Origin: a virus
Lineage: Duplodnaviria; Heunggongvirae; Uroviricota; Caudoviricetes
Reading direction: 5' to 3' (one strand)
Virus record (IMG/VR): IMGVR_UViG_3300045988_117814
Location: 1-29,440 of that record
DNA length: 29,440 bases
Part shown: positions 2,045 through 25,381 of the stretch, in pieces
Position numbering within the stretch: position 1 is the first letter of the stretch
How the letters are laid out: every line of letters starts with the position of its first letter
Translations under genes and position numbers: made by a program
Notes under the pieces: model-generated
Database searches by the model: none
Told to the model about the DNA's origin: nothing
What the model saw: the letters and a program-made list of their open reading frames with translations, nothing else

Positions 2045-2641
2045 ATGATGCCTGCTGAACCTAAAACCTATAAACGCAAATCAACGCAATTTAAGCCGCT
2101 CACAGCAATGCAGGAGGCTTATTGCCAGTCATACATCAAAACGCCTGAAAACCAGACTCAGGCAGCGATTAACGCAGGATTCTCCCCAAATACAGCGGCA
2201 GTTAAAGCCAGTGTCATGATGCGCGATGAACGCATTCAAAAACGGATTGCTGAGTTGATGGAGGAGCGCAACAAACGAATGCGCGTCAGTGCTGATTACG
2301 TTCTCATGCGCCTGGTGGAGATCGACCAGATGGACGTGCTCGACATCCTCAACGACGATGGGAGCCTTAAGCCAATACGCGAGTGGCCGAAAATCTGGCG
2401 CACTACGCTTAGCGGCTTTGATCTGTCATCGACCATCATGAACATGAACGAGGATTCGATAGAGACAATCCTCAAAAAAATTAAATGGCCTGACAAGGTG
2501 AAGAACCTTGAGCTGATTGGTAAGCATGTTGATGTCAACGCGTTCAAAGAACGTCTGGATGTTAATGTGAATGTGACAATTGCTGATCGCATAGCAGCAG
2601 CCAGGAAGCGACTCAAAGAACGTCAGGATGGTAATCAGTGA
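2045..2641 (+). CDS. Terminase small subunit
   Basis: Sits immediately upstream of and overlapping the large terminase gene; helix-rich, basic N-terminal region. The ORF-track start at 1967 is TTG and translates an implausible TTTVTITTV stretch; the first ATGs are at 2045/2048. Confidence 0.7.
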   Translation: MMPAEPKTYKRKSTQFKPLTAMQEAYCQSYIKTPENQTQAAINAGFSPNTAAVKASVMMRDERIQKRIAELMEERNKRMRVSADYVLMRLVEIDQMDVLDILNDDGSLKPIREWPKIWRTTLSGFDLSSTIMNMNEDSIETILKKIKWPDKVKNLELIGKHVDVNAFKERLDVNVNVTIADRIAAARKRLKERQDGNQ

Positions 2642-4113
2642 CAGATGCATCGTTATCTCCTGAAGAGCAGTTAATCGAAGATATTGCAGGGTTCACTCAC
2701 GATCCTCTTGGCTATGCCCTCTATGCGTTCCCTTGGGGGGAAGAGGGGACTGAACTGGCACATGCTATCGGTCCACGTCAGTGGCAGGCCGATGCGTTCC
2801 GAGAGATACGTGATCACCTGCAGAATCCAGAGACGCGTTATCAGCCGCTTATGCTGGCACGTGCTTCTGGTCACGGTATTGGTAAATCCGCATTCATCTC
2901 AATGCTCATCAACTGGGGCATGTCCACTTGCGAGGATTGTAAGGTCGTGGTGACCGCCAACACCGACAACCAGCTACGAACGAAGACCTGGCCGGAAATT
3001 ATCAAGTGGTCGAACCTTGCTATCACGAAAGACTGGTTTACCTGTACCGCTACCGCGATGTACAGCAATGACCCTGGGCACGACAAGCGGTGGCGGGCTG
3101 ACGCAATACCCTGGTCTGAGCACAACACTGAGGCATTCGCCGGACTACACAACGAGCGCAAACGCATCATCGTGGTATTCGATGAAGCGTCGAACATTGC
3201 GGATCTGGTGTGGGAAGTTGCTGAGGGTGCGCTTACGGACGAAGACACTGAGATTATCTGGGTGGCGTTCGGAAACCCTACACGTAACACCGGGCGTTTT
3301 CGCGAATGTTTCCGCAAATATAAACACCGCTGGAAAACTGCGCAGATTGACAGCCGGACGGTGGAAGGTACTAACAAACAGCAGTTGCAGAAATGGGTTG
3401 ATGACTACGGGGAAGACAGCGACTTCGTTAAAATCCGTGTGCGCGGCATATTCCCGGATGCATCTGAATTGCAGTTTATCCCTACCGGCCTTACTGACGA
3501 GGCAATGAAACGGGTGGTAACCGCTGCGCAGGTTGCACATGCTCCGGTGATAATCGGCGTTGACCCGGCATACTCCGGCGTTGATGACGCTGTGATATAC
3601 CTGCGGCAGGGGCTGCACAGTAAGGTGCTATGGACTGGTAACAAGACCACCGACGATCTGATTATGGCGAAGCGTATCGCTGACTTTGAAGACCAGTATC
3701 AGGCTGACGCGGTGTTCATCGACTTCGGTTATGGAACCGGTTTGAAGTCAATCGGTGATGGCTGGGGACGTACATGGCAACTTGTTCCGTTCGGCGGTGC
3801 GTCCACTGACCCGCAGATGCTTAACAAGCGTGGGGAGATGTTCAACTCATGTAAGACATGGCTGAGGCTGGGCGGCATGCTGGATGACCAGGAAACTGCA
3901 GACGACCTGTCGGCGGCAGAGTACAAAGTTCGTGTGGACGGTAAAATCGTTATCGAACCGAAGGAAGATATCAAAGAGCGTCTTGGGCGTTCTCCTGGTA
4001 AAGGCGATGCGCTACTGCTGACGTTTGCTTTCCCGGTCTCGAAACGCATAAATATACCAGGACAGCAAAGCCAGCAGGGAAGGGCCATAACGGATTATGA
4101 CCCTTATGCTTAA
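2638..4113 (+). CDS. Terminase large subunit
   Basis: 491 aa; Walker-A-like GHGIGKS; typical size and position upstream of the portal; GTG start overlapping the terS stop (GTGA). Confidence 0.85.
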   Translation: MTDASLSPEEQLIEDIAGFTHDPLGYALYAFPWGEEGTELAHAIGPRQWQADAFREIRDHLQNPETRYQPLMLARASGHGIGKSAFISMLINWGMSTCEDCKVVVTANTDNQLRTKTWPEIIKWSNLAITKDWFTCTATAMYSNDPGHDKRWRADAIPWSEHNTEAFAGLHNERKRIIVVFDEASNIADLVWEVAEGALTDEDTEIIWVAFGNPTRNTGRFRECFRKYKHRWKTAQIDSRTVEGTNKQQLQKWVDDYGEDSDFVKIRVRGIFPDASELQFIPTGLTDEAMKRVVTAAQVAHAPVIIGVDPAYSGVDDAVIYLRQGLHSKVLWTGNKTTDDLIMAKRIADFEDQYQADAVFIDFGYGTGLKSIGDGWGRTWQLVPFGGASTDPQMLNKRGEMFNSCKTWLRLGGMLDDQETADDLSAAEYKVRVDGKIVIEPKEDIKERLGRSPGKGDALLLTFAFPVSKRINIPGQQSQQGRAITDYDPYA

Positions 4114-4152
4114 TCCGCTGGTGGGGATAATGTCGTTGATATCTTCTGGTGA

Positions 4153-4183
4153 GGATAAAACAAAGCCAGCTCATAGGCTGGCT
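4153..4183 (-). terminator. Rho-independent terminator for the minus-strand moron transcript
   Basis: Hairpin AGCCAGC-tcatag-GCTGGCT (4164-4183); read on the - strand it is followed by TTGTTTTATCC, directly downstream of the stop at 4204-4206. Confidence 0.6.
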
Positions 4184-4203
4184 GTTTGTGACATGCCACG
4201 GTG

Positions 4204-4575
4204 TTATTGCTCGCTTAACTTCTGCTTCAGCAAGTAACCTTCGAGCATCCAGATTTTGTTTACAGCATTCTGCCGGGCAATCTTCCGACCAATTTCTGCA
4301 TCAAAATTTTCCGGACTTGCACAGGAACTCTCTCCGGTGACGGTGAAGCCGTTGCGCAGCACCAGGACGCAGAACGTCAGCAGAGAAAGTGATTCGTGCG
4401 GCTGGTAGTTTACCTCTCCGCCAGTATGTTTCGCTTTTATGGCTTTGCCAAAGGCACCATCTTCTGCTGTGAAATATGCCTCCTGAGCAATAATGCCTTC
4501 GATATGGTCTGGCGTAACGCGCGGTGCCGTTTTGCCTTTCTCAACGATTTCTTTTTCGATTTGCTGGTCGTTCAT
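4204..4575 (-). CDS. Hypothetical moron protein of unknown function, 123 aa
   Basis: ATG at 4575 with SD (AAGGTGAGATT-ATG on the - strand); opposite orientation to the surrounding late genes; own terminator; shares its strand with the upstream tRNA. Confidence 0.7.
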   Translation of the reverse strand: MNDQQIEKEIVEKGKTAPRVTPDHIEGIIAQEAYFTAEDGAFGKAIKAKHTGGEVNYQPHESLSLLTFCVLVLRNGFTVTGESSCASPENFDAEIGRKIARQNAVNKIWMLEGYLLKQKLSEQ

Positions 4576-4773
4576 AATCTCACCTTAAAAAAATGCCCTG
4601 CGAACCGGGCGAACTGGAAGCAATGAGTTATGCCTTCCGTGGCTGTACTGATTTACAGCATGAAGTCATCGCAATGGCGTCCTGCTGTAAAAAGAGCGGT
4701 GATAGTCCTTCAAGGGAAACCATCACCGCCAAGCCCCTGGAACTTCTGGCATCACGGTCCTTAGGCGTGATTC

Positions 4774-4850
4774 TGGCGTGGTATGCAGGATTCGAACCTG
4801 CGACCAACCGCTTAGAAGGCGGTTGCTCTGTCCAACTGAGCTAATACCAC
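4774..4850 (-). tRNA. tRNA-Arg (anticodon TCT / UCU, reads AGA)
   Basis: Reverse complement folds by hand into a canonical cloverleaf: 7-bp acceptor stem GTGGTAT/ATACCAC, D-arm GCTC/GAGC, anticodon stem ACCGC/GCGGT with loop CTTCTAA, T-arm GCAGG-TTCGAAT-CCTGC, discriminator G and encoded CCA. Confidence 0.9.
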
Positions 4851-5277
4851 AACGCTGAGAGCACTTAGCCTGTTAAGGCGCCACACTTTGTCGCGGCTCC
4901 ATAAATGCTCTCATCGTTGTACCCTCGTCTCTTCCGAGGCGTCACACCGAATCGCCGGGATGGTGAATCCCCGTGCGCGGAATAAAACCGCTCGACTTGC
5001 ACATTCCGGCTACCTGGTTCGTTTGCTCGAGCAAGGGAGGGTGCCCCTTAAACGTATCCAGACCGCTATCGGCGCATGTGCCATACGCCGTACTGCTCAA
5101 AATAAAAGCTCACTCCACCTGTTCAATTTAACGACAAGCCAGTCAGGTTAATAACCGGAATGAACTCTTTGCTTACCTGAAAGGTAATAATTCGTGCGTT
5201 AAATGTCAACTATCTACGATAAATAAATCATATGTGGTTAAATTGGTAATAATTTAATTGCGTACGGAGTCATTGAT

Positions 5278-5484
5278 ATGTGCATGGGTAGCTCACCATC
5301 AGTGCCTGCAACACCAGAAGTTCAGGCAGCACCACAGGAGCAGGATGCCGCCGTTGTTGATGCCCGCGACGAAGAAACACGTCGCCGTCGCGCTGCTGCT
5401 GGTCGTAGTTCTACGCTGCTTACCGGTTCTCAGGGCGACACATCAACCGCTAATACCAGCGGTAAAACGCTGCTTGGTCAGTAA
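5278..5484 (+). CDS. Small virion-associated protein, T7 gp6.7-like
   Basis: ATG with SD GGAGT; N-terminus MC..., Ser/Thr/Ala-rich with a basic centre, placed immediately before the portal as gp6.7 is in T7-like phages. Confidence 0.5.
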   Translation: MCMGSSPSVPATPEVQAAPQEQDAAVVDARDEETRRRRAAAGRSSTLLTGSQGDTSTANTSGKTLLGQ

Positions 5485-5498
5485 CCGGAGTCATTGAA

Positions 5499-7178
5499 AT
5501 GGCGGAAACAACTAAAGAGCGATTGAACAAACAGTTCGCACAACTTGAAAGCGAGCGTCAGTCGTTCGAGCCGCACTGGCGCGAGTTGAGTGATTACATC
5601 AACCCGCGTGGTTCCCGCTTTCTGACTTCTGAGGTCAACCGTAACGATCGACGCAATACACGCATTATTGATTCGACCGGGACTATGGCGGCGCGCACTC
5701 TCGCCAGCGGCATGATGTCAGGCATCACAAGCCCCGCGCGTCCGTGGTTTCGCCTGGCTACGCCAGATCCTGAAATGATGGATTATGGCCCTGTTAAGTT
5801 GTGGCTTGAGGCGGTGCAGAACCGCATGAACGATATGTTCAATAAGTCGAATCTCTATCAGTCGCTGCCGCAGTTATACGGAAGCCTCGGCACATACAGC
5901 ACCGGTGCAATGGCGGTACTGGAGGATGACGAGGACATCATTCGCACAATGTCATTCCCGATAGGCAGTTACTACCTGGCTAACTCACCTCGTGGCAGTG
6001 TGGACACCTGTTTTCGCAAGTTCTCTATGACTGTTCGTCAGCTTGTTCAGGAGTTCGGGCTAAATAACGTCAGCGAATCCGTAAAAAGCATGTGGGAAAG
6101 CGGCACCTACGAGAAGTGGATTGAAGTGATGCATTCGGTTTACCCGAATATTGACCGCGACACATCGAAGCTGGATAGCAAGAACAAGCCATTCAAATCG
6201 GTTTATTACGAGGTTGGTGGCGATAACGACAAGTTGTTGCGTGAGTCCGGATTCGATGAGTTTCCAATTATGGCTCCGCGCTGGGAAGTTAACGGCGAAG
6301 ATGTTTATGGATCATCATGCCCGGGTATGCTGGCGCTTGGACCTGTTAAGGCATTGCAGCTTCTCCAGAAGCGCAAGTCGCAGTTGATTGATAAAGCCAC
6401 CAATCCGCCGATGGTTGCTCCGACTTCCCTCAAGAATCAGCGCGCCTCCCTTCTTCCTGGCGACATCACGTATATCGATCAGATTACTGGTCAGGATGGC
6501 TTCAGGCCTGCTTATCTGATTAACCCCAGTACAGCAGATTTGGTGGAAGACATTCAGGACACTCGTCAAATCATTAACAGCGCCTACTTTGTCGATCTGT
6601 TCATGATGTTGCAGAACATCAATACCCGCTCGATGCCTGTTGAAGCGGTGATCGAAATGAAAGAAGAAAAACTTCTGATGTTGGGGCCGGTTCTGGAGCG
6701 TCTGAACGACGAATGTCTTAATCCTCTCATTGACCGCGCTTTCTCGATGATGGTGCGTAAAAACATGCTGCCGCCACCGCCTGACGCGATGGAAGGCATG
6801 CCCCTGAAGGTCGAATACATTTCCGTCATGGCTCAGGCGCAGAAGTCTATCGGCCTGTCCAGTCTGGCGTCCACGGTTAACTTCATTGGTCAACTTGCGC
6901 AAGCGAAACCAGAAGCTCTCGACAAACTCAACGTTGATCAGGCGATCGATGCATTCGCTGATATGTCCGGAGTGTCTCCAACCGTCATTGTTCCGCAGGA
7001 ACAGGTTGAGCAGGCTCGCCAGCAACGGGCACAGCAACAACAGCAGCAACAAATGATGGCGATGGGGATGGCGGCGGCACAGGGGGCCAAGACGCTAAGC
7101 GAAGCTAAAACTTCGGATCCGAGTGTGTTGTCAGCTATGGCGAATGCAGTTAGTGGTCAGGGTGGGCTATCACAATGA
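5499..7178 (+). CDS. Portal (head-to-tail connector) protein, T7 gp8 family
   Basis: 559 aa; the C-terminal Q/A/M-rich tail (QQQQQQMMAMGMAAAQGA...) resembles the T7 gp8 C-terminus as I remember it; lies upstream of scaffold and capsid genes. Confidence 0.85.
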   Translation: MAETTKERLNKQFAQLESERQSFEPHWRELSDYINPRGSRFLTSEVNRNDRRNTRIIDSTGTMAARTLASGMMSGITSPARPWFRLATPDPEMMDYGPVKLWLEAVQNRMNDMFNKSNLYQSLPQLYGSLGTYSTGAMAVLEDDEDIIRTMSFPIGSYYLANSPRGSVDTCFRKFSMTVRQLVQEFGLNNVSESVKSMWESGTYEKWIEVMHSVYPNIDRDTSKLDSKNKPFKSVYYEVGGDNDKLLRESGFDEFPIMAPRWEVNGEDVYGSSCPGMLALGPVKALQLLQKRKSQLIDKATNPPMVAPTSLKNQRASLLPGDITYIDQITGQDGFRPAYLINPSTADLVEDIQDTRQIINSAYFVDLFMMLQNINTRSMPVEAVIEMKEEKLLMLGPVLERLNDECLNPLIDRAFSMMVRKNMLPPPPDAMEGMPLKVEYISVMAQAQKSIGLSSLASTVNFIGQLAQAKPEALDKLNVDQAIDAFADMSGVSPTVIVPQEQVEQARQQRAQQQQQQQMMAMGMAAAQGAKTLSEAKTSDPSVLSAMANAVSGQGGLSQ

Positions 7179-7471
7179 CAGATTATGAAGACGATCAACT
7201 GAAAGAAGAAAACGCCCGTAAGCAACGTGACATGGCACAGCGTGAAATTGATGACATTCGCTTTGTCATGAGCAGTGAACAGGGGCGTCGCGTTGTCTGG
7301 TCTGTGCTGGAGAAAGGCCGTGTGTTTTCCGCTATCTCACCAATGGACGCTATGGCAATGGCATTTAATGAGGGGCAACGCAATCAGGCGCTGGAACTGT
7401 TTCAGCGCGTTATGGCGCATTGCCCTGAACAGTATTTGAAGATGGCCAAAGAGGCCAGTGAACAGGAGTGA
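7175..7471 (+). CDS. Hypothetical protein between portal and scaffold
   Basis: ATG overlapping the portal stop (ATGA); 98 aa, acidic and helical. Confidence 0.55.
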   Translation: MTDYEDDQLKEENARKQRDMAQREIDDIRFVMSSEQGRRVVWSVLEKGRVFSAISPMDAMAMAFNEGQRNQALELFQRVMAHCPEQYLKMAKEASEQE

Positions 7472-21745: not shown

Positions 21746-21901
21746 TCAAATAATTTGTTTGCTATCCAGCACGTTTTGCAAATCACCTGAAAGGTAATAT
21801 CTGTTTGTATTCATGGTCTATCTATCTATATATGGTTTTTCGGGTAATAGAATAATCGGATATGCGGCGCAACGGGTGCTGCGACTATCTGGAGATTTAA
21901 C

Positions 21902-24331
21902 ATGACGGTCTCAACCGAAGTTAACCACAACGAATACACCGGTAACGGCGTTACGACATCATTCCCTTATACCTTTAGGGTTTTCAATAAATCTGATTTA
22001 GTAGTGCAGGTGATTGACCTTGACGAGAATATCACTGTGCTGGATCTTGATACTGATTACACAGTCACTGGTGCGGGAGGGTATAACGGTGGCAATGTAA
22101 TTCTGTCGAAGGCACTGGCTAATGGTTATCAGATTTCCATATTGCGAGAACTATCGGTTACTCAGGAAACAGATCTTAGAAACCAGGGTAAGTTTTTTGC
22201 TGAGGTGCACGAAGACGCGTTTGATAAGCTAACGATGCTGATCCAGCAGGTAAGAAGTTGGTTTTCACTTGCTCTTCGTAAGCCATCTTTTGTGTCGAAT
22301 TATTATGACGCTATTAACAACTACATCAGAAATCTGCGAGACCCTGTGCGCCCACAGGATGCGGCAACTAAAAATTATGTCGATAAACTTGCTAATACAA
22401 ATCTAGGTCGTACTCTTAGAACGCCTGAGCCAATACCAAGTTTGCCTGATGCTGAGAATCGTAAAAACAAAGTGGTAGCGATGGATGACAATGGTAATCC
22501 TATTATGGTCCTTCCACAGTCTGGATCTGCATCCGATGTAATGATTCAGCTAGCAGCAAGTGATGGCTTAAAACTTATTGGCAATTGTGCTTCCATTTCT
22601 AATTTACGCAATATAGAACCAACAAATTTACAGCAAAGAATATATGTATTAGAGCATACTTTAGGCTCTGGTATTGGAGGTGGGTATTTTTATTATGATA
22701 GCACTGATTTAACAACAATTGATGATGATGGAATGATAATTGTGACGCCTGGTGGAAAGCGTTGGAAAAGAATCTGCAATGAAGTGTATGCTGATTATTA
22801 CGGAATTGTTCCTGATGGAGTAACGGATTGTCATGATAAATTGAACAAAGCACTGCAAGCGGCAAAAATGGCAACGGTGAAAGAGCTTATTCTTTCTGAA
22901 GGTACTTACGGGATTAACTCTGCACTGAAAGTACCATCTTACGTTAGATTGTGTGGGGTGGGGAAATTTAAGACCGTTATTCTAGCACTACCAACAATGC
23001 CGATAATTGAAAACTGTATTCAGAACGAGCTTTATGAATACAGGGTATTCAGGACAAACTACGATACTTCTATCCACATAGAAGACTTATGTGTAGATGC
23101 TAACAATCGAGCAAGAAATCCGTCAGAAACATGGATGGATGCCACACAGGGGACTACTATTTTATTTTCTACTGTCAGCCACAGTTCCATCAAAAACGTT
23201 TACTGTAAGCGTGGTTTGCAGCATGGTATAGATATTTGTGCTGGGTATTATTTCGATGATGGGAATATTAATAATAATGCAGTTGGTGGTAGCTATGACA
23301 TTGTTGTTGAAGACACTTTTGTTCAAAACAGTCAACTTGACGATCTCATTACAACGCATAATAGCAGTGATATTGTAATTAACCGCTGCCGAGTATGGAA
23401 CGATGACCCTGATATGGTATGGACAGGGAATCAGCATGGTATTGAAATTGATGAAGGAAGTTATAATGTTACCGTGATGGATTGTTATGCGGATGGGGTA
23501 ATGACTGGATTTCAGCAGAAGGGCCACTCAACAACAATGCCCGCAAGATGTGTTAAATTTTATAGATGTTATGCAAAAAATTGTGTTCATGGATTCCAAA
23601 TTGAGCACATTAATACAGCATCAATACCATCGGGGCGGCATCAAAATGCCAGGTATTCCGTTATAGCAAGTTGTACGGTTGAAAACGCAAACAACTCAAA
23701 ATACACATCAAACCATGCAAGGGTTGTTGAAATTTTAGGGTTCTACGGTATTTATATAAATGAATTAAGGGTTATCGGAGGTGCTGGTAATATATATATT
23801 AGCGGCGGAGCAAGATATATAAACATAGATGGCATTTTTTGGGATGGTGGATACTCAGGAGCTTCCGATACTGATGCCGAGGGATTGGTTCATATAGAAA
23901 CTGATTCAAGCTGTGATGACTACACGATAAATAACTTTATCTGTGAAGATAGCGTAAGTGTTCCATTGATTAGAGATTTGACAGACTCAAGAGTTCAAAG
24001 AGGAATAAGTAATATTAGAGGTTATGGTAAAAACGCAACAATACCAATGATAGCCATTGTCCCAAATGATGATGATAATATATCAAACATATCAACAGCT
24101 GGATCATGGCTTTGTGCTATTAATGATATGGCCAGAGCTCCAGGGACAGGAACATATAGTCAGAATGTTTCTTTTATACATGGTATTTCATTGATAAGCG
24201 GTTCAGGAACTCCTTACGGAGTTATTAATGGTAAGCCAGGAGGATTATATGTTGACAAAAACACAGGATACTTCTATCAATGCACAAGCGCAGGAAGTGG
24301 AGGATGGAAGGGGTTGGTAAGTAATCCTTAA
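21902..24331 (+). CDS. Tailspike (receptor-binding, probable O-antigen depolymerase)
   Basis: 809 aa; N-terminal particle-binding-type domain (EYTGNGVTTSFPYTF...) of the kind seen in many podovirus tailspikes, followed by an AT-rich body with beta-helix-like repeats; last structural gene. Confidence 0.8.
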   Translation: MTVSTEVNHNEYTGNGVTTSFPYTFRVFNKSDLVVQVIDLDENITVLDLDTDYTVTGAGGYNGGNVILSKALANGYQISILRELSVTQETDLRNQGKFFAEVHEDAFDKLTMLIQQVRSWFSLALRKPSFVSNYYDAINNYIRNLRDPVRPQDAATKNYVDKLANTNLGRTLRTPEPIPSLPDAENRKNKVVAMDDNGNPIMVLPQSGSASDVMIQLAASDGLKLIGNCASISNLRNIEPTNLQQRIYVLEHTLGSGIGGGYFYYDSTDLTTIDDDGMIIVTPGGKRWKRICNEVYADYYGIVPDGVTDCHDKLNKALQAAKMATVKELILSEGTYGINSALKVPSYVRLCGVGKFKTVILALPTMPIIENCIQNELYEYRVFRTNYDTSIHIEDLCVDANNRARNPSETWMDATQGTTILFSTVSHSSIKNVYCKRGLQHGIDICAGYYFDDGNINNNAVGGSYDIVVEDTFVQNSQLDDLITTHNSSDIVINRCRVWNDDPDMVWTGNQHGIEIDEGSYNVTVMDCYADGVMTGFQQKGHSTTMPARCVKFYRCYAKNCVHGFQIEHINTASIPSGRHQNARYSVIASCTVENANNSKYTSNHARVVEILGFYGIYINELRVIGGAGNIYISGGARYINIDGIFWDGGYSGASDTDAEGLVHIETDSSCDDYTINNFICEDSVSVPLIRDLTDSRVQRGISNIRGYGKNATIPMIAIVPNDDDNISNISTAGSWLCAINDMARAPGTGTYSQNVSFIHGISLISGSGTPYGVINGKPGGLYVDKNTGYFYQCTSAGSGGWKGLVSNP

Positions 24332-24379: not shown

Positions 24380-25381
24380 TTATTTTAGTTTTCTTAGAAT
24401 ATTTCTGCTTGGCTTTTCTACTAAATGAAATGTTAATATGGAAAACATCAGTGTAGATATAACCATAACAAACACATCATTTATATAACTAACATTTAAC
24501 CATTCAGTTATTGCATTCACTTCAAATATAAAATGCCTTTGTATCATCAGGTGCGTAAGGTAAATTGAAAAAGACAACTCCCCCAAATAATGAATAGGTT
24601 TTGTTGATAGTAACCATCCTGTTATTCCAGTGCTATAATAAAGCGATGATATATATAATCCGGTCAAAATAACAAAAACAATATCCATTCCTTTTGTTAG
24701 TAAACACGCTATTACTAAAGCCGCCAAAATATCTTGAGTATATGCAATAACATTAAATGTGTGTTTGTATTTATCAAATAAAACATAGCAACAACAACCT
24801 ATAGTGAAACCACAAACACCTCTCATTATTGAAGGGATTCCGCTATATATATCAAGTGGCCCGCTACTACCAGGGTTGTCAATTGTTGTAATATAAAACA
24901 ACATTGACATTGATGTGTAAATTATTATGAAACATAACCATTTCTTATCGGTTAATAAGAATATTAGAGGCGGAAATATTAAATACGCAATTAATTCAAC
25001 GCTAACAGACCATGATGCACCAACCATTCCATTATTAAATAAATTTTGCCACATCATAAAATTTATTATGAGATTTTGAGTTGATGGTGGCGATGATTGA
25101 TTTACTTGAATAATTATTGTTAATAATAAAACAAATAAATATAATGGATATATTCTTGAAAATCTATGCCAAATAAATTTTCCAAATTCACTAACAGATA
25201 TTTCTTGTGTGAAATTTTTAGAGTATACCATACACATTATAAATCCGCTTAATACGAAAAAAAGATCTACTGCTAGATATCCGTTCCATAGAAAAGGTAT
25301 TTTTGCGTTTGTAAAGTGATAAAGAACTACGTAAATTGCAGCTATTCCTCTAACACCTGTTAGTGATTTTATTTCTTTCAT
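24380..25381 (-). CDS. oac: Acyltransferase family 3 integral membrane protein; probable O-antigen O-acetyltransferase (lysogenic conversion)
   Basis: 333 aa, multi-pass membrane protein with hallmark motifs SLTGVRGIAAIYVVLYHF and VDLFFVLSGF; very AT-rich; convergent with the tailspike. Confidence 0.8.
   Translation of the reverse strand: MKEIKSLTGVRGIAAIYVVLYHFTNAKIPFLWNGYLAVDLFFVLSGFIMCMVYSKNFTQEISVSEFGKFIWHRFSRIYPLYLFVLLLTIIIQVNQSSPPSTQNLIINFMMWQNLFNNGMVGASWSVSVELIAYLIFPPLIFLLTDKKWLCFIIIYTSMSMLFYITTIDNPGSSGPLDIYSGIPSIMRGVCGFTIGCCCYVLFDKYKHTFNVIAYTQDILAALVIACLLTKGMDIVFVILTGLYISSLYYSTGITGWLLSTKPIHYLGELSFSIYLTHLMIQRHFIFEVNAITEWLNVSYINDVFVMVISTLMFSILTFHLVEKPSRNILRKLK

Follow-up and report, generated by a model that had tools for sequence, protein, structure and literature searches.

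The window (the whole analysed stretch of DNA, 29,440 nt) belongs to a phiV10-like Uetakevirus, with 96.5% identity to phiV10 over 4.6 kb of this stretch. Between terL and the gp3-portal operon it carries a unit on the opposite strand, in which the following features lie in the order of transcription:

4153-5277, minus strand: the complete unit, with tRNA-Arg(UCU), a 123-aa ORF and a terminator hairpin, between terL and the gp3-portal operon
5181-5209, minus strand: candidate promoter, TTGACA (5209-5204), 17-nt spacer and TACCTT (5186-5181); across five divergent Uetakeviruses the two hexamers hardly change or do not change at all, and the spacer varies
5173-5187, no strand assigned: palindrome TTACCTGAAAGGTAA of the form TTACC-N5-GGTAA, conserved, overlapping the minus-strand -10 hexamer, about 90 nt upstream of gp3
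4851-5094, minus strand: element E, about 245 nt, a candidate structured RNA whose six helices are based on covariation (its model scores 141.8 bits at 4919-5094)
4774-4850, minus strand: tRNA-Arg(UCU), 3' CCA encoded (ARAGORN, anticodon TCT; Rfam RF00005)
4576-4773, minus strand: conserved non-coding leader of 198 nt with several hairpins, T1 and T2 included, kept even where the cargo differs
4686-4730, minus strand: T1, a terminator-like hairpin (4730-4695) with a 14-bp stem, then CTTTTTACA; -20.8 kcal/mol, z=-3.8
4587-4610, minus strand: T2, hairpin GCCCGGTTCGCAGGGC (4610-4595), then A and T7; -8.3 kcal/mol, z=-0.57; directly before the ribosome-binding site
4579-4586, minus strand: ribosome-binding site AAGGTGAG, common to different cargo genes of relatives
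4204-4575, minus strand: acb4 homologue, 123 aa, ATG start; PF13876 (Phage_gp49_66), PGAP name 'Gp49 family protein', the equivalent of phiV10p03 and epsilon15p50
4153-4183, minus strand: T3, the intrinsic terminator that ends the unit, a hairpin (4183-4164) and, after it on the minus strand, TTGTTTTATC; conserved in relatives

The gene order from terL to gp3 is the same in the annotation of phiV10, and counter-oriented units occupy the equivalent place in epsilon15, phiV10, SPN1S, Tyrion and a Klebsiella relative, which makes the unit a feature of the genus and not an insertion private to the window phage. The premise of the initial annotation that in epsilon15-like phages the portal region normally comes right after terL is contradicted by the same five phages. 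At least 80% of positions 4100-5300 is present in 223 complete E. coli genomes, where it is annotated as 'Gp49 family protein' and 'tRNA-Arg'; TL-2011b is among the matches to the window DNA. The GC fraction is 0.48-0.55 in the cassette versus 0.52-0.55 in its flanks, and the only AT-rich part is the promoter region (0.43), so a base composition distinct from that of the neighbouring genes, as used to recognise morons, was not found for the cassette. In public records the 123-aa protein is labelled hypothetical and 4851-5277 is left blank. The ORF phiV10p04 (4593-4844, plus strand) was taken to be spurious in view of its overlap with both the tRNA and the structured leader.

The tRNA, the 123-aa ORF and the terminator were all confirmed where the initial annotation had placed them (by ARAGORN and Rfam, by Pfam, and by hairpin scanning and folding). 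The T3 hairpin folds on the minus strand (-13.5 kcal/mol, z=-3.4) and on the plus strand too (z=-2.9), and in the phiV10 record it is annotated as a terminator after terL, so that T3 serves both strands.

The 123-aa protein, which had not been placed in any family by eye, is by sequence a member of the PF13876/Acb4 family. It matches PF13876 with 117.2 bits (cut-off 27, E=4.6e-34), its residues 20-120 lying on positions 1-82 of the 82 in the profile, and such an E-value rules out a chance ORF at 4204-4575. PF13876 corresponds to Acb4, a family of anti-CBASS sponges for cyclic dinucleotides, which in its published form is defined by 1,331 homologues (Chang et al., Table S3); the window sequence is exactly A0A383FJR8 (E. 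coli) of that table, in which the homologues of phiV10, epsilon15, Sf6 and N4 are found as well. Compared pairwise as a single sequence, the protein matches SPO1 Acb4 weakly (E=0.0023), and a ten-member family profile matches PDB 9E4W (SPO1 Acb4) with E=7.1e-8 over chain residues 4-82. For the alpha-beta-beta-beta-alpha core and the homotetramer of Acb4, a single-sequence AlphaFold2 prediction of the protein (pLDDT 40.9) is unusable. The assignment to the family is settled by Pfam, the PDB profile match and the published table. The initial guess of an anti-defence function fits this assignment.

According to the Acb4 paper, 3'3'-cGAMP is bound by SPO1 Acb4 and by all eight diverse homologues assayed, 3'3'-cAA is bound too by homologues from phages of Gram-negative hosts, and CBASS is blocked in vivo by SPO1 Acb4. 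The stacking and adenine-pocket residues of SPO1 Acb4 are kept in the window protein (F48=F77, F62=F91, I66=I95), other contacts are changed (E49 to T78, Y57 to A86, T70 to I99), V56 aligns with C85, and N63, whose contact is made by the backbone, with D92; K36 and K81 lie outside the alignment on which this pocket comparison is based. The window protein is 89% identical to phiV10p03, its first 16 residues being of the Sf6 gp66 type and not of the phiV10 type. Its top protein match (97.6%) is in a Stx2a phage, which was considered as a sign of exchange with lambdoid phages and then dropped, because that phage is an Oslovirus by taxonomy. We take TL-2011b to be a member of the genus Oslovirus.

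Behind the same leader, T2 and ribosome-binding site, relatives carry either Acb4, Tad2 (PF11195, E=3e-24 and 4e-26) or other ORFs, which makes the slot a hot spot for anti-defence cargo. In some relatives it is filled by a membrane protein that has a coiled coil and a promoter of its own, and in those with the fourth type of cargo a new promoter follows T2. The earlier description of a counter-oriented accessory unit, without a role in assembly, is supported. The tRNA and acb4 are independent of each other in relatives, SPN1S having the tRNA without acb4 and epsilon15 having acb4 without the tRNA. The slot is a defined one in phages of the phiV10/epsilon15 type, among them Stx-converting relatives and O157 typing phages, and since sponges (Acb4, Tad2) and genes of unknown function interchange in it, the ORFs of 140 aa and 146 aa would be good new anti-defence candidates. 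By itself the cassette is useful and unsurprising, and element E could be of more consequence.

The tRNA scores 73.2 bits against the Rfam tRNA model RF00005 (gathering score 29, E=1e-15). A tRNA-Arg is present in phiV10 and SPN1S, and missing in epsilon15, Tyrion and the Klebsiella phage. The AGA codon is rare in E. coli and abundant in the tailspike, ejection-protein and acyltransferase genes of the window phage: it amounts to 6.9 per 1000 overall, makes up 16 of the 35 Arg codons of the tailspike gene and, in 24380-25381, 6 of 7. Normal tRNA processing would free the tRNA from the transcript, after which it would decode the AGA codons of late genes.

Transcription of the minus strand would start from the candidate promoter (5209-5181), with the palindrome as a putative regulator-binding site over its -10. 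The -10 hexamer matches at three of six positions, and the promoter scored under the threshold of a generic scan. The window has four sites of the palindrome where chance would give 0.53; the remaining ones lie before terS and the tailspike gene, and the palindrome abuts -10-like hexamers ahead of gp3 and the tailspike gene. The equivalent palindrome is annotated 'repressor, lysogeny' in the epsilon15 record. With the palindrome over its -10, the unit would be turned on upon infection or induction and not be held on in the lysogen. The suggestion that it could be expressed from the prophage thus appears unsupported, as judged from the sequence, since the -10 of the only conserved promoter lies in this annotated repressor site. 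The palindrome may, however, be a late-activator site instead of a repressor operator. Of the 'promoter region' that had been assigned to 4851-5277, the conserved promoter and palindrome (5209-5173) were retained, while most of the remainder (4851-5094) is the structured RNA E.

No promoter was found adjoining the ORF, the sole match of the generic scan being inside the ORF and the leader holding no good hexamer pair by eye. The nearest conserved promoter is located 600 nt upstream of the ORF, beyond E, the tRNA, T1 and T2. The claim of an own promoter and terminator is therefore borne out for the terminator (T3), but the promoter is remote, with none between T2 and the ribosome-binding site. 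Neither is the tRNA immediately upstream of the ORF, as had been stated, because the 198-nt conserved leader with T1 and T2 lies between them. The T1 stem covaries, GGCGGT...ACCGCC CTTTTTAC is conserved, and T1 is homologous to the hairpin that follows E in lambdoid phages. T2 is the last conserved block ahead of the variable cargo and occurs in compensatory variants (GCCCGG/CCGGGC and GCCCAC/GTGGGC); its equivalent in the epsilon15 record is annotated as a rho-independent terminator, whereas the T2 stem of the window is weakened, compared with phiV10, by a C-to-A change. In the absence of a promoter between T2 and the ribosome-binding site, expression of the cargo would require readthrough of both T1 and T2. 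The view of the tRNA and the ORF as one autonomous transcription unit becomes doubtful with two terminator-like hairpins between them and with each occurring alone in relatives.

In element E, helix P1 is a hairpin, and P2, which has a variable tip, is followed by the invariant stretch AGCCGGAAUGUGCAAG; P3 pairs up with P4 in a pseudoknot of the H type, the hairpin P5 has the loop GAAGAGA, and P6 is a long closing stem, while the tail GUUGUGG continues into the 5' end of the tRNA. In the alignment 93.9% of the cells are paired, compared to 29-48% in slid controls, and changes on both sides are seen in 12 pairs. The pseudoknot covaries, a 16-nt stretch is invariant across 24 lineages, and the pairing of P6 is upheld by a partner test. 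A small ORF was ruled out as an explanation, because copies differ by indels whose lengths are not divisible by three and the stems show compensatory substitutions.

Of 5426 complete E. coli genomes, 1840 (about a third) contain E, which also occurs in the ban operon of phage P1 and in the early-left leader of SfV/cdtI-type lambdoid phages in which the N gene is not annotated. Its orientation is always that of the neighbouring tRNAs and operons. Of the matches of a 17-mer anchor of E in contigs, 23 of 54 were confirmed by the model; many lie outside the Enterobacterales, and by our estimate approximately as many are expected by chance. In epsilon15, acb4 and T2 are kept, while most of E and the tRNA are lost. 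A search with Rfam 15 over 4560-5280 of the window and over the cdtI copy of E returned the tRNA alone, with nothing else credible up to an E-value of 10, and a full-text search found no description of E in the literature. E is left unannotated by PGAP in every match listed, from a search that was positive in 1840 genomes. In genome annotations the place of E is either blank or filled with spurious ORFs.

The surroundings of E differ between its carriers. In cdtI the cI terminator is followed by a strong promoter (TTGACA-16-CATAAT), about 50 nt, E, a T1-type hairpin and the early-left genes; the annotations of cdtI and mEp460 list no N gene. The model finds a single match in phage cdtI, and there is one copy of E per phage genome. 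In P1, E sits within the ban operon directly before ban, and the interval from E to ban holds no convincing terminator. Generic terminators were found downstream of E in 16 of 23 lineages and antisense in 15, so that their count does not discriminate. The specific T1-type hairpin is the sole recurrent partner of E.

Following these results, the transcript would run from E through the tRNA-Arg(UCU), the leader with T1 and T2 and the shared ribosome-binding site to the cargo, and end at the terminator shared with terL. Going by homology, the Acb4-family cargo would form a tetramer and sequester CBASS cyclic dinucleotides, as a result of which the host effector would never be activated. E itself would act in cis on the polymerase or on termination and permit the readthrough, as it would in the lambdoid early-left operon without annotated N. 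It seems probable, though far from certain, that the unit is a conserved accessory cassette of the Uetakeviruses for anti-defence and translation support, timed and read through in this manner. Of this, the anatomy, the family of the protein, the conservation, the exchange of cargo and the RNA fold of E are shown, and the timing of expression, the binding of ligands and the role of E are inferred. Of the roles considered for E we favour that of a cis-acting readthrough leader. The complete proposal, i.e. that E is an undescribed class of phage RNA that acts as a cis leader for readthrough of T1 and T2 and thereby times both the cargo and the lambdoid early-left operon, is tentative and may well be incorrect. 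Against a readthrough function argue epsilon15, which has acb4 and T2 without most of E, the interval between E and ban in P1, which has no convincing terminator, the occurrence of one copy per phage genome, unlike putL/putR, and the number of generic terminators downstream, which is no higher than antisense. If true, a cis-readthrough E would join nut and put as a third type of antitermination signal in phages. Should E control termination, this would explain early-gene expression in phages without annotated N, and likewise how a cargo behind two terminators is switched on. In an equally novel variant, E would work in trans, as an RNA that is the first to be made upon infection.

In a different reading of the locus, the promoter, E, the tRNA and T1 (with T2) constitute a self-contained non-coding RNA gene, E acts in trans (for instance as a decoy or partner of a host or defence protein) and acb4 is a separate gene, expressed only through terminator leak or from an unrecognised promoter. 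The recurrence of E with a T1-type hairpin as a module in both lambdoid phages and Uetakeviruses, where the stems of T1 covary, would agree with such a gene, as would the complex pseudoknotted fold of E with its invariant single-stranded stretch, which suits a binding RNA. T2 behaves as a true upstream transcript end in the relatives that have a new promoter after it, the tRNA and acb4 each occur without the other, and in epsilon15 acb4 is found without E. However, in lambdoid phages E and T1 head the early-left operon, whose genes need transcription through T1, and in P1 E lies inside the ban operon, directly before ban, with no terminator in between. We know of no target for a trans-acting E, and consider two separate genes possible but somewhat unlikely. 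That E is not an RNA at all, being either a site that works as DNA (an origin or a site of recombination, for instance) or a functionless remnant in decay, is suggested by its lack of annotation anywhere and of a known partner, and by what appears to be a remnant of a tRNA 5' end after the lambdoid copies. Its G-U pairs are strand-specific, though, being invariant or alternating with G-C and A-U (on the complementary strand they would be C-A mismatches), its orientation matches that of the flanking tRNAs and operons throughout, and the 12 double-sided changes, the covarying pseudoknot and the 16-nt stretch conserved in 24 lineages make this explanation extremely improbable.

The readings that concern the tRNA and the protein can be weighed in the same way. 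In a classical moron the two would form one autonomous unit that is on in the repressed prophage, with a fitness or exclusion benefit to the lysogen. The opposite orientation and the own terminator are in line with this, the cargo varies among relatives as in morons, and the membrane coiled-coil protein that takes the slot in some of them, where it has its own promoter, could be an exclusion protein. Conversely, the -10 lies within the palindrome that is annotated as a repressor site in epsilon15, the tRNA and the ORF are separated by two terminator-like hairpins, a sponge for immune signals serves the infecting phage rather than the lysogen, the composition equals that of the flanks and the unit is found across the genus; a classical moron is therefore very unlikely. 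For the protein, it could be that the Acb4 fold is used for another ligand (e.g. a cyclic trinucleotide) or for a role other than that of a sponge, in which case the label 'anti-CBASS' would be wrong. Of the contacts in SPO1 Acb4, those that read guanine and those to the phosphate are lost (E49 to T, Y57 to A, T70 to I), the protein has an additional N-terminal region as well as an insertion at approximately residues 38-63, and the Acb4 paper itself notes that extensions suggest added functions and that the ligand range differs with the host. Since 3'3'-cGAMP was bound by eight out of eight diverse homologues in the same paper, the core and adenine pocket are kept, and another immune-signal sponge (Tad2) is found in the same slot, a different ligand or role is unlikely. 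The tRNA, in turn, could be a counter-defence that replaces a host tRNA-Arg after cleavage or depletion, rather than mainly a supplement to codon usage. Anticodon nucleases can be bypassed by phage tRNAs, the tRNA is placed in an anti-defence locus, and through E it is connected to the rare-codon tRNA-Ile(CAU) of P1, but the enrichment of AGA in late genes is a sufficient conventional reason for its presence, so that a counter-defence tRNA is decidedly unlikely.

Returning to the cassette as favoured above, its closest counterparts are p03 and the tRNA-Arg of phiV10 and gene 50 of epsilon15, which occupy the same locus (the Uetakevirus terL-gp3 intergenic unit), with the same terminator in phiV10. 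Like the Acb4 of Bacillus phage SPO1, the window protein is small and phage-encoded, but it has 123 aa instead of 96 aa, with an insertion at about residues 38-63 and an extra N-terminal region, which are missing in shorter members. Tad2 and other phage sponges of immune signals are often fused to Acb4 or exchanged for it. Compared with these, the relation is one of position, Tad2 genes lying in exactly the same slot in relatives. Acb4-Tad2 fusions are known from the literature, whereas the window has Acb4 alone and the swapping takes place at the level of the locus, with no fusion. Like other phage tRNAs for rare codons, the tRNA of the window reads a codon that the host seldom uses and in which horizontally acquired late genes are rich. 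The ileZ-argN-argO genes of Stx phages are other phage genes for rare-codon tRNAs, and the tRNA-Ile(CAU) of P1 is likewise a rare-codon tRNA, which in P1 is directly followed by E. Different from the tRNAs of P1 and Stx phages, the window has one tRNA, joined to the 3' tail of E and with two terminator-like hairpins after it.

For E, several known RNA signals were compared. A likeness to ops/JUMPstart (RfaH) around GGTAGC and CAGTGCTCT was dropped, as only the GGTAG core matches and the flanks differ (by eye, against the consensus). The 3' strand of P6, UGCUCU(C/U)..., is similar to boxA (UGCUCUUUA), and CGCUCUUUUUACA comes after T1; in contrast to nut sites and the boxA leaders of rrn operons, however, the boxA-like stretch of E is base-paired in a covarying stem, and N is not annotated in its carriers. 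A boxA or nut site in the 3' block of E was for that reason left as a resemblance, which is possibly coincidental. The put RNAs of HK022 are about 70 nt long, with two stem-loops, and occur in two copies (putL/putR), one per early operon; their antitermination needs no factors and is sensitive to mutations in the zinc-binding domain of the RNA polymerase beta-prime subunit. E was rejected as a homologue of put, since its covariance model has no match in HK022 and the sizes and folds differ, E being a single-copy element that has six helices, a pseudoknot and a length of about 245 nt. Nevertheless, like putL, E is promoter-proximal and heads the early-left operon upstream of terminators in lambdoid phages without annotated N, a position that is not shared by the copy of E in P1.

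On sequence comparison, the window is identified as a phiV10-like Uetakevirus of the epsilon15 group (96.5% identity to phiV10 over 2600-7200). The two share the gene order terS, terL, counter-oriented unit, gp3, portal, and counter-oriented genes also lie between terL and gp3 in epsilon15, SPN1S, Tyrion and a Klebsiella relative, which contradicts the initial annotation, where terL of epsilon15-like phages was taken to abut the portal region. In 223 complete E. coli genomes, 80% or more of 4100-5300 is present (annotated there as 'Gp49 family protein' and 'tRNA-Arg'), and the GC content of the unit does not differ from that of its flanks. Judged by these comparisons the unit is not a private insertion of this phage, and its proposed inserted origin was mistaken. 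The neighbouring gp3 ORF (5278-5484, plus strand; 68 aa, starting MCMGSSPS; PHROG 831) is conserved genus-wide without a Pfam match, and its 5' untranslated region (5190-5277) is nearly invariant.

The tRNA, ORF and terminator named earlier were borne out by ARAGORN, Rfam, Pfam and hairpin folding; the tRNA, however, is not immediately upstream of the ORF, as had been stated, but separated from it by a conserved leader.

Features of the locus and related sites
4164-4183, both strands: hairpin T3, folding well both ways and ending both terL and the minus-strand unit
4204-4575, minus: 123-aa ORF, real, with a PF13876 match
4610-4587 (hairpin 4595-4610), minus: T2, a canonical terminator in relatives
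4730-4695, then CTTTTTACA, minus: T1, a strong terminator-like hairpin (-20.8 kcal/mol, z=-3.8)
between tRNA and ORF: conserved leader, 198 nt
4774-4850, minus: tRNA-Arg(UCU), from ARAGORN and the Rfam tRNA model
4851-5094, minus: element E, a structured RNA candidate of ~245 nt
TTGACA 5209-5204, 17-nt spacer, TACCTT 5186-5181, minus: promoter candidate, the sole conserved one
5173-5187: palindrome TTACCTGAAAGGTAA, containing the -10 hexamer TACCTT
2013-2027 and 2031-2045: TTACC-N5-GGTAA sites, both abutting the terS ATG
5173-5187 (the palindrome just listed) and 21783-21797: TTACC-N5-GGTAA sites before gp3 and the tailspike gene, respectively

The 123-aa protein, which had not been placed in a family by eye, matches PF13876 with 117 bits (E=4.6e-34), and its exact sequence is A0A383FJR8 in Table S3 of Chang et al., alongside the phiV10, epsilon15, Sf6 and N4 homologues. 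PF13876 was shown to be the Acb4 (anti-CBASS 4) family by Chang et al., and is treated as such in a second paper too; the SPO1 protein forms a tetramer that acts as a sponge for CBASS signals, 3'3'-cGAMP and related ones, and all eight diverse homologues assayed bound cGAMP (Chang et al.). A ten-member family profile also matches the solved structure 9E4W (E=7e-8), and family membership, as assigned from sequence, is secure. That membership does not by itself fix the ligand range; of the SPO1 ligand contacts, the equivalents of F48, F62 and I66 are retained in the alignment and those of E49, Y57 and T70 differ. Identity to phiV10p03 is 89%, with 8 of the 13 differences in the first 16 residues, which are of the Sf6 gp66 type. 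The earlier guess of an anti-defence moron was half right as regards function, and wrong as to origin and autonomy.

For the tRNA, codon supplementation would be the simplest role. AGA has a frequency of 6.9 per 1000 codons across the window's main genes and clusters in the tailspike gene (21902-24331; 16 of its 35 Arg codons), the genes for the ejection proteins and a minus-strand 333-aa gene (24380-25381; 6 of 7); acb4 has zero AGA codons. Their AGA usage suggests that the tailspike and 333-aa genes came recently from an AT-rich source and rely on the phage tRNA.

Between T2 and the ribosome-binding site there is no room for a promoter. The hexamers of the candidate upstream of E are kept, with a variable spacer, in five divergent Uetakeviruses. 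The palindrome TTACC-N5-GGTAA occurs at 4 sites in the window versus 0.53 expected by chance, and the epsilon15 record labels it a lysogeny repressor site. Lysogenic expression, as initially proposed, is therefore unsupported, and the unit is probably regulated and off in the lysogen; alternatively, the palindrome may serve a late activator. At its copies upstream of gp3 and of the tailspike gene, a -10-like hexamer follows directly, without a -35. T2 itself carries a C-to-A change (GCCCGGTTCGCAGGGC versus ...CCGGGC in relatives) that leaves a 4-bp stem (-8.3 kcal/mol, z=-0.57) in place of the 6-bp stem capped by a UUCG loop, and by this folding prediction readthrough into acb4 may be raised in this phage.

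The cassette belongs to a known type and its protein had been catalogued before; what is new here is the slot architecture, in which exchangeable sponge genes follow a common leader and ribosome-binding site. When the sequence 3' of the tRNA was aligned from 26 related loci, the leader was kept as far as the hairpin GCCCGGTTCGCCGGGC plus A and T7, followed by a common ribosome-binding site, AAGGTGAGAT, past which the genes diverge. The slot holds Acb4, Tad2 (PF11195; with or without an N-terminal extension), an uncharacterised 140-142-aa protein (L123, L011, L032), an uncharacterised 146-aa protein (L079) or, in SPN1S, a lipoprotein-like protein; a further cargo type is a membrane coiled-coil protein of 200-290 aa (L113, L009, L028, L033), which comes with its own promoter and the TTACC-N5-GGTAA palindrome. 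The 140-142-aa and 146-aa genes have no significant Pfam match and the coiled-coil matches are weak, all below cut-offs; all of these genes share the slot of Acb4 and Tad2 and are candidate new proteins for anti-defence or exclusion. The tRNA and acb4 are separable (SPN1S has the tRNA without acb4, epsilon15 the reverse).

The main novelty is element E, an RNA that lacks annotation. This GC-rich region, initially called a promoter region, is ~80% identical to stretches of unrelated phages, always oriented as the window's minus strand: downstream of cI in cdtI, mEp460 and Stx2c phages, and between tRNA-Ile(CAU) and ban in P1-like phages. Its 17-nt invariant anchor occurs in >120 viral contigs (110 unique sequences, 24 clusters). 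A covariance model found single copies in the window (141.8 bits) and in cdtI, and copies in P1, SPN1S and the Klebsiella phage; in epsilon15 it picked up only a fragment, and HK022 gave no hit. Rfam 15 gave no credible match to E, even with E-values up to 10. Of 5426 complete E. coli genomes, 1840 carry E, unannotated throughout among the matches listed; in a set of species representatives, all confirmed copies were in Enterobacterales.

In an alignment of 20 lineages, a six-helix structure with an H-type pseudoknot pairs 93.9% of cells, versus 29-48% with slid partners, and both sides changed in twelve pairs. Shuffles never reached the observed values on four of five measures (the fifth was reached by 2 of 500). 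The pseudoknot covaries (CACC/GGUG to AACC/GGUU), and P6, the long closing stem, folds best with the lineage's own partner strand in 8 of 10 cases. The G-U pairs, which are invariant or alternate, together with the constant orientation relative to tRNAs, argue that E is RNA, on the minus strand. Annotated or callable ORFs overlap such parts: phiV10p04 (4593-4844, plus strand; its own PHROG family, 4647) overlaps tRNA and leader, mEp460_037 lies at 3443-3811 of the mEp460 locus (L187), and ORFs are callable over 2479-2703 of the cdtI locus (L007). Because they overlap the tRNA or covarying RNA structure, all are probably spurious.

In cdtI, the order is cI, terminator, strong promoter (matching the consensus at 11 of 12 positions), a gap of ~50 nt, E, one hairpin, a T1-homologous long-stem hairpin and the early-left genes ending in xis, with no N gene annotated; cI followed by E recurs in other carriers with differing immunity types. 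In at least 12 of 23 lineages, E has a T1-type hairpin (GGCGGT...ACCGCC, CTTTTTAC) on its 3' side; the stems of these hairpins covary. Where the tRNA is absent (cdtI, L007 2740-2775; L089, L003 and other lambdoid or Tyrion copies), E is followed by GTGGTGAAT-GCGCAGGCTGATGCGC, which resembles the 5' acceptor strand and D-arm of tRNA-Arg, GTGGTATTA-GCTCAGTTGGACAGAGC; it could be what is left of a tRNA, or else a boxB-like hairpin. A second motif, like the E tail (GCTCTTCTCTGTTTTGTGGAGAAAC), occurs at L007 2970-3000 and, in L090 and L124, ~320 nt 3' of the anchor; in lambdoid carriers it follows the T1-type hairpin, just before the first early-left ORF.

What E does can be read in several ways. 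A cis-acting readthrough leader is our tentative preference, held with somewhat less than even confidence, and against it stand the retention of acb4 in epsilon15 though most of E is gone, the want of a clear terminator before ban in P1, and the single E copy per genome. That E is a stand-alone trans-acting RNA ending at T1/T2 is possible but rather doubtful; a riboswitch-like sensor would be improbable, and an E without RNA function highly so, with a small remainder of the probability assigned to no reading. The stronger proposition, that a hitherto undescribed E times both cargo and early-left operon as a readthrough leader, is unlikely; it ranks below the cis-acting leader as such, because it also needs E to be truly undescribed and to time both. 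In favour of the cis-acting leader, the placement of E in cdtI is similar to that of putL in HK022, and a putL-like readthrough element would account for expression of the cargo behind T1 and T2.
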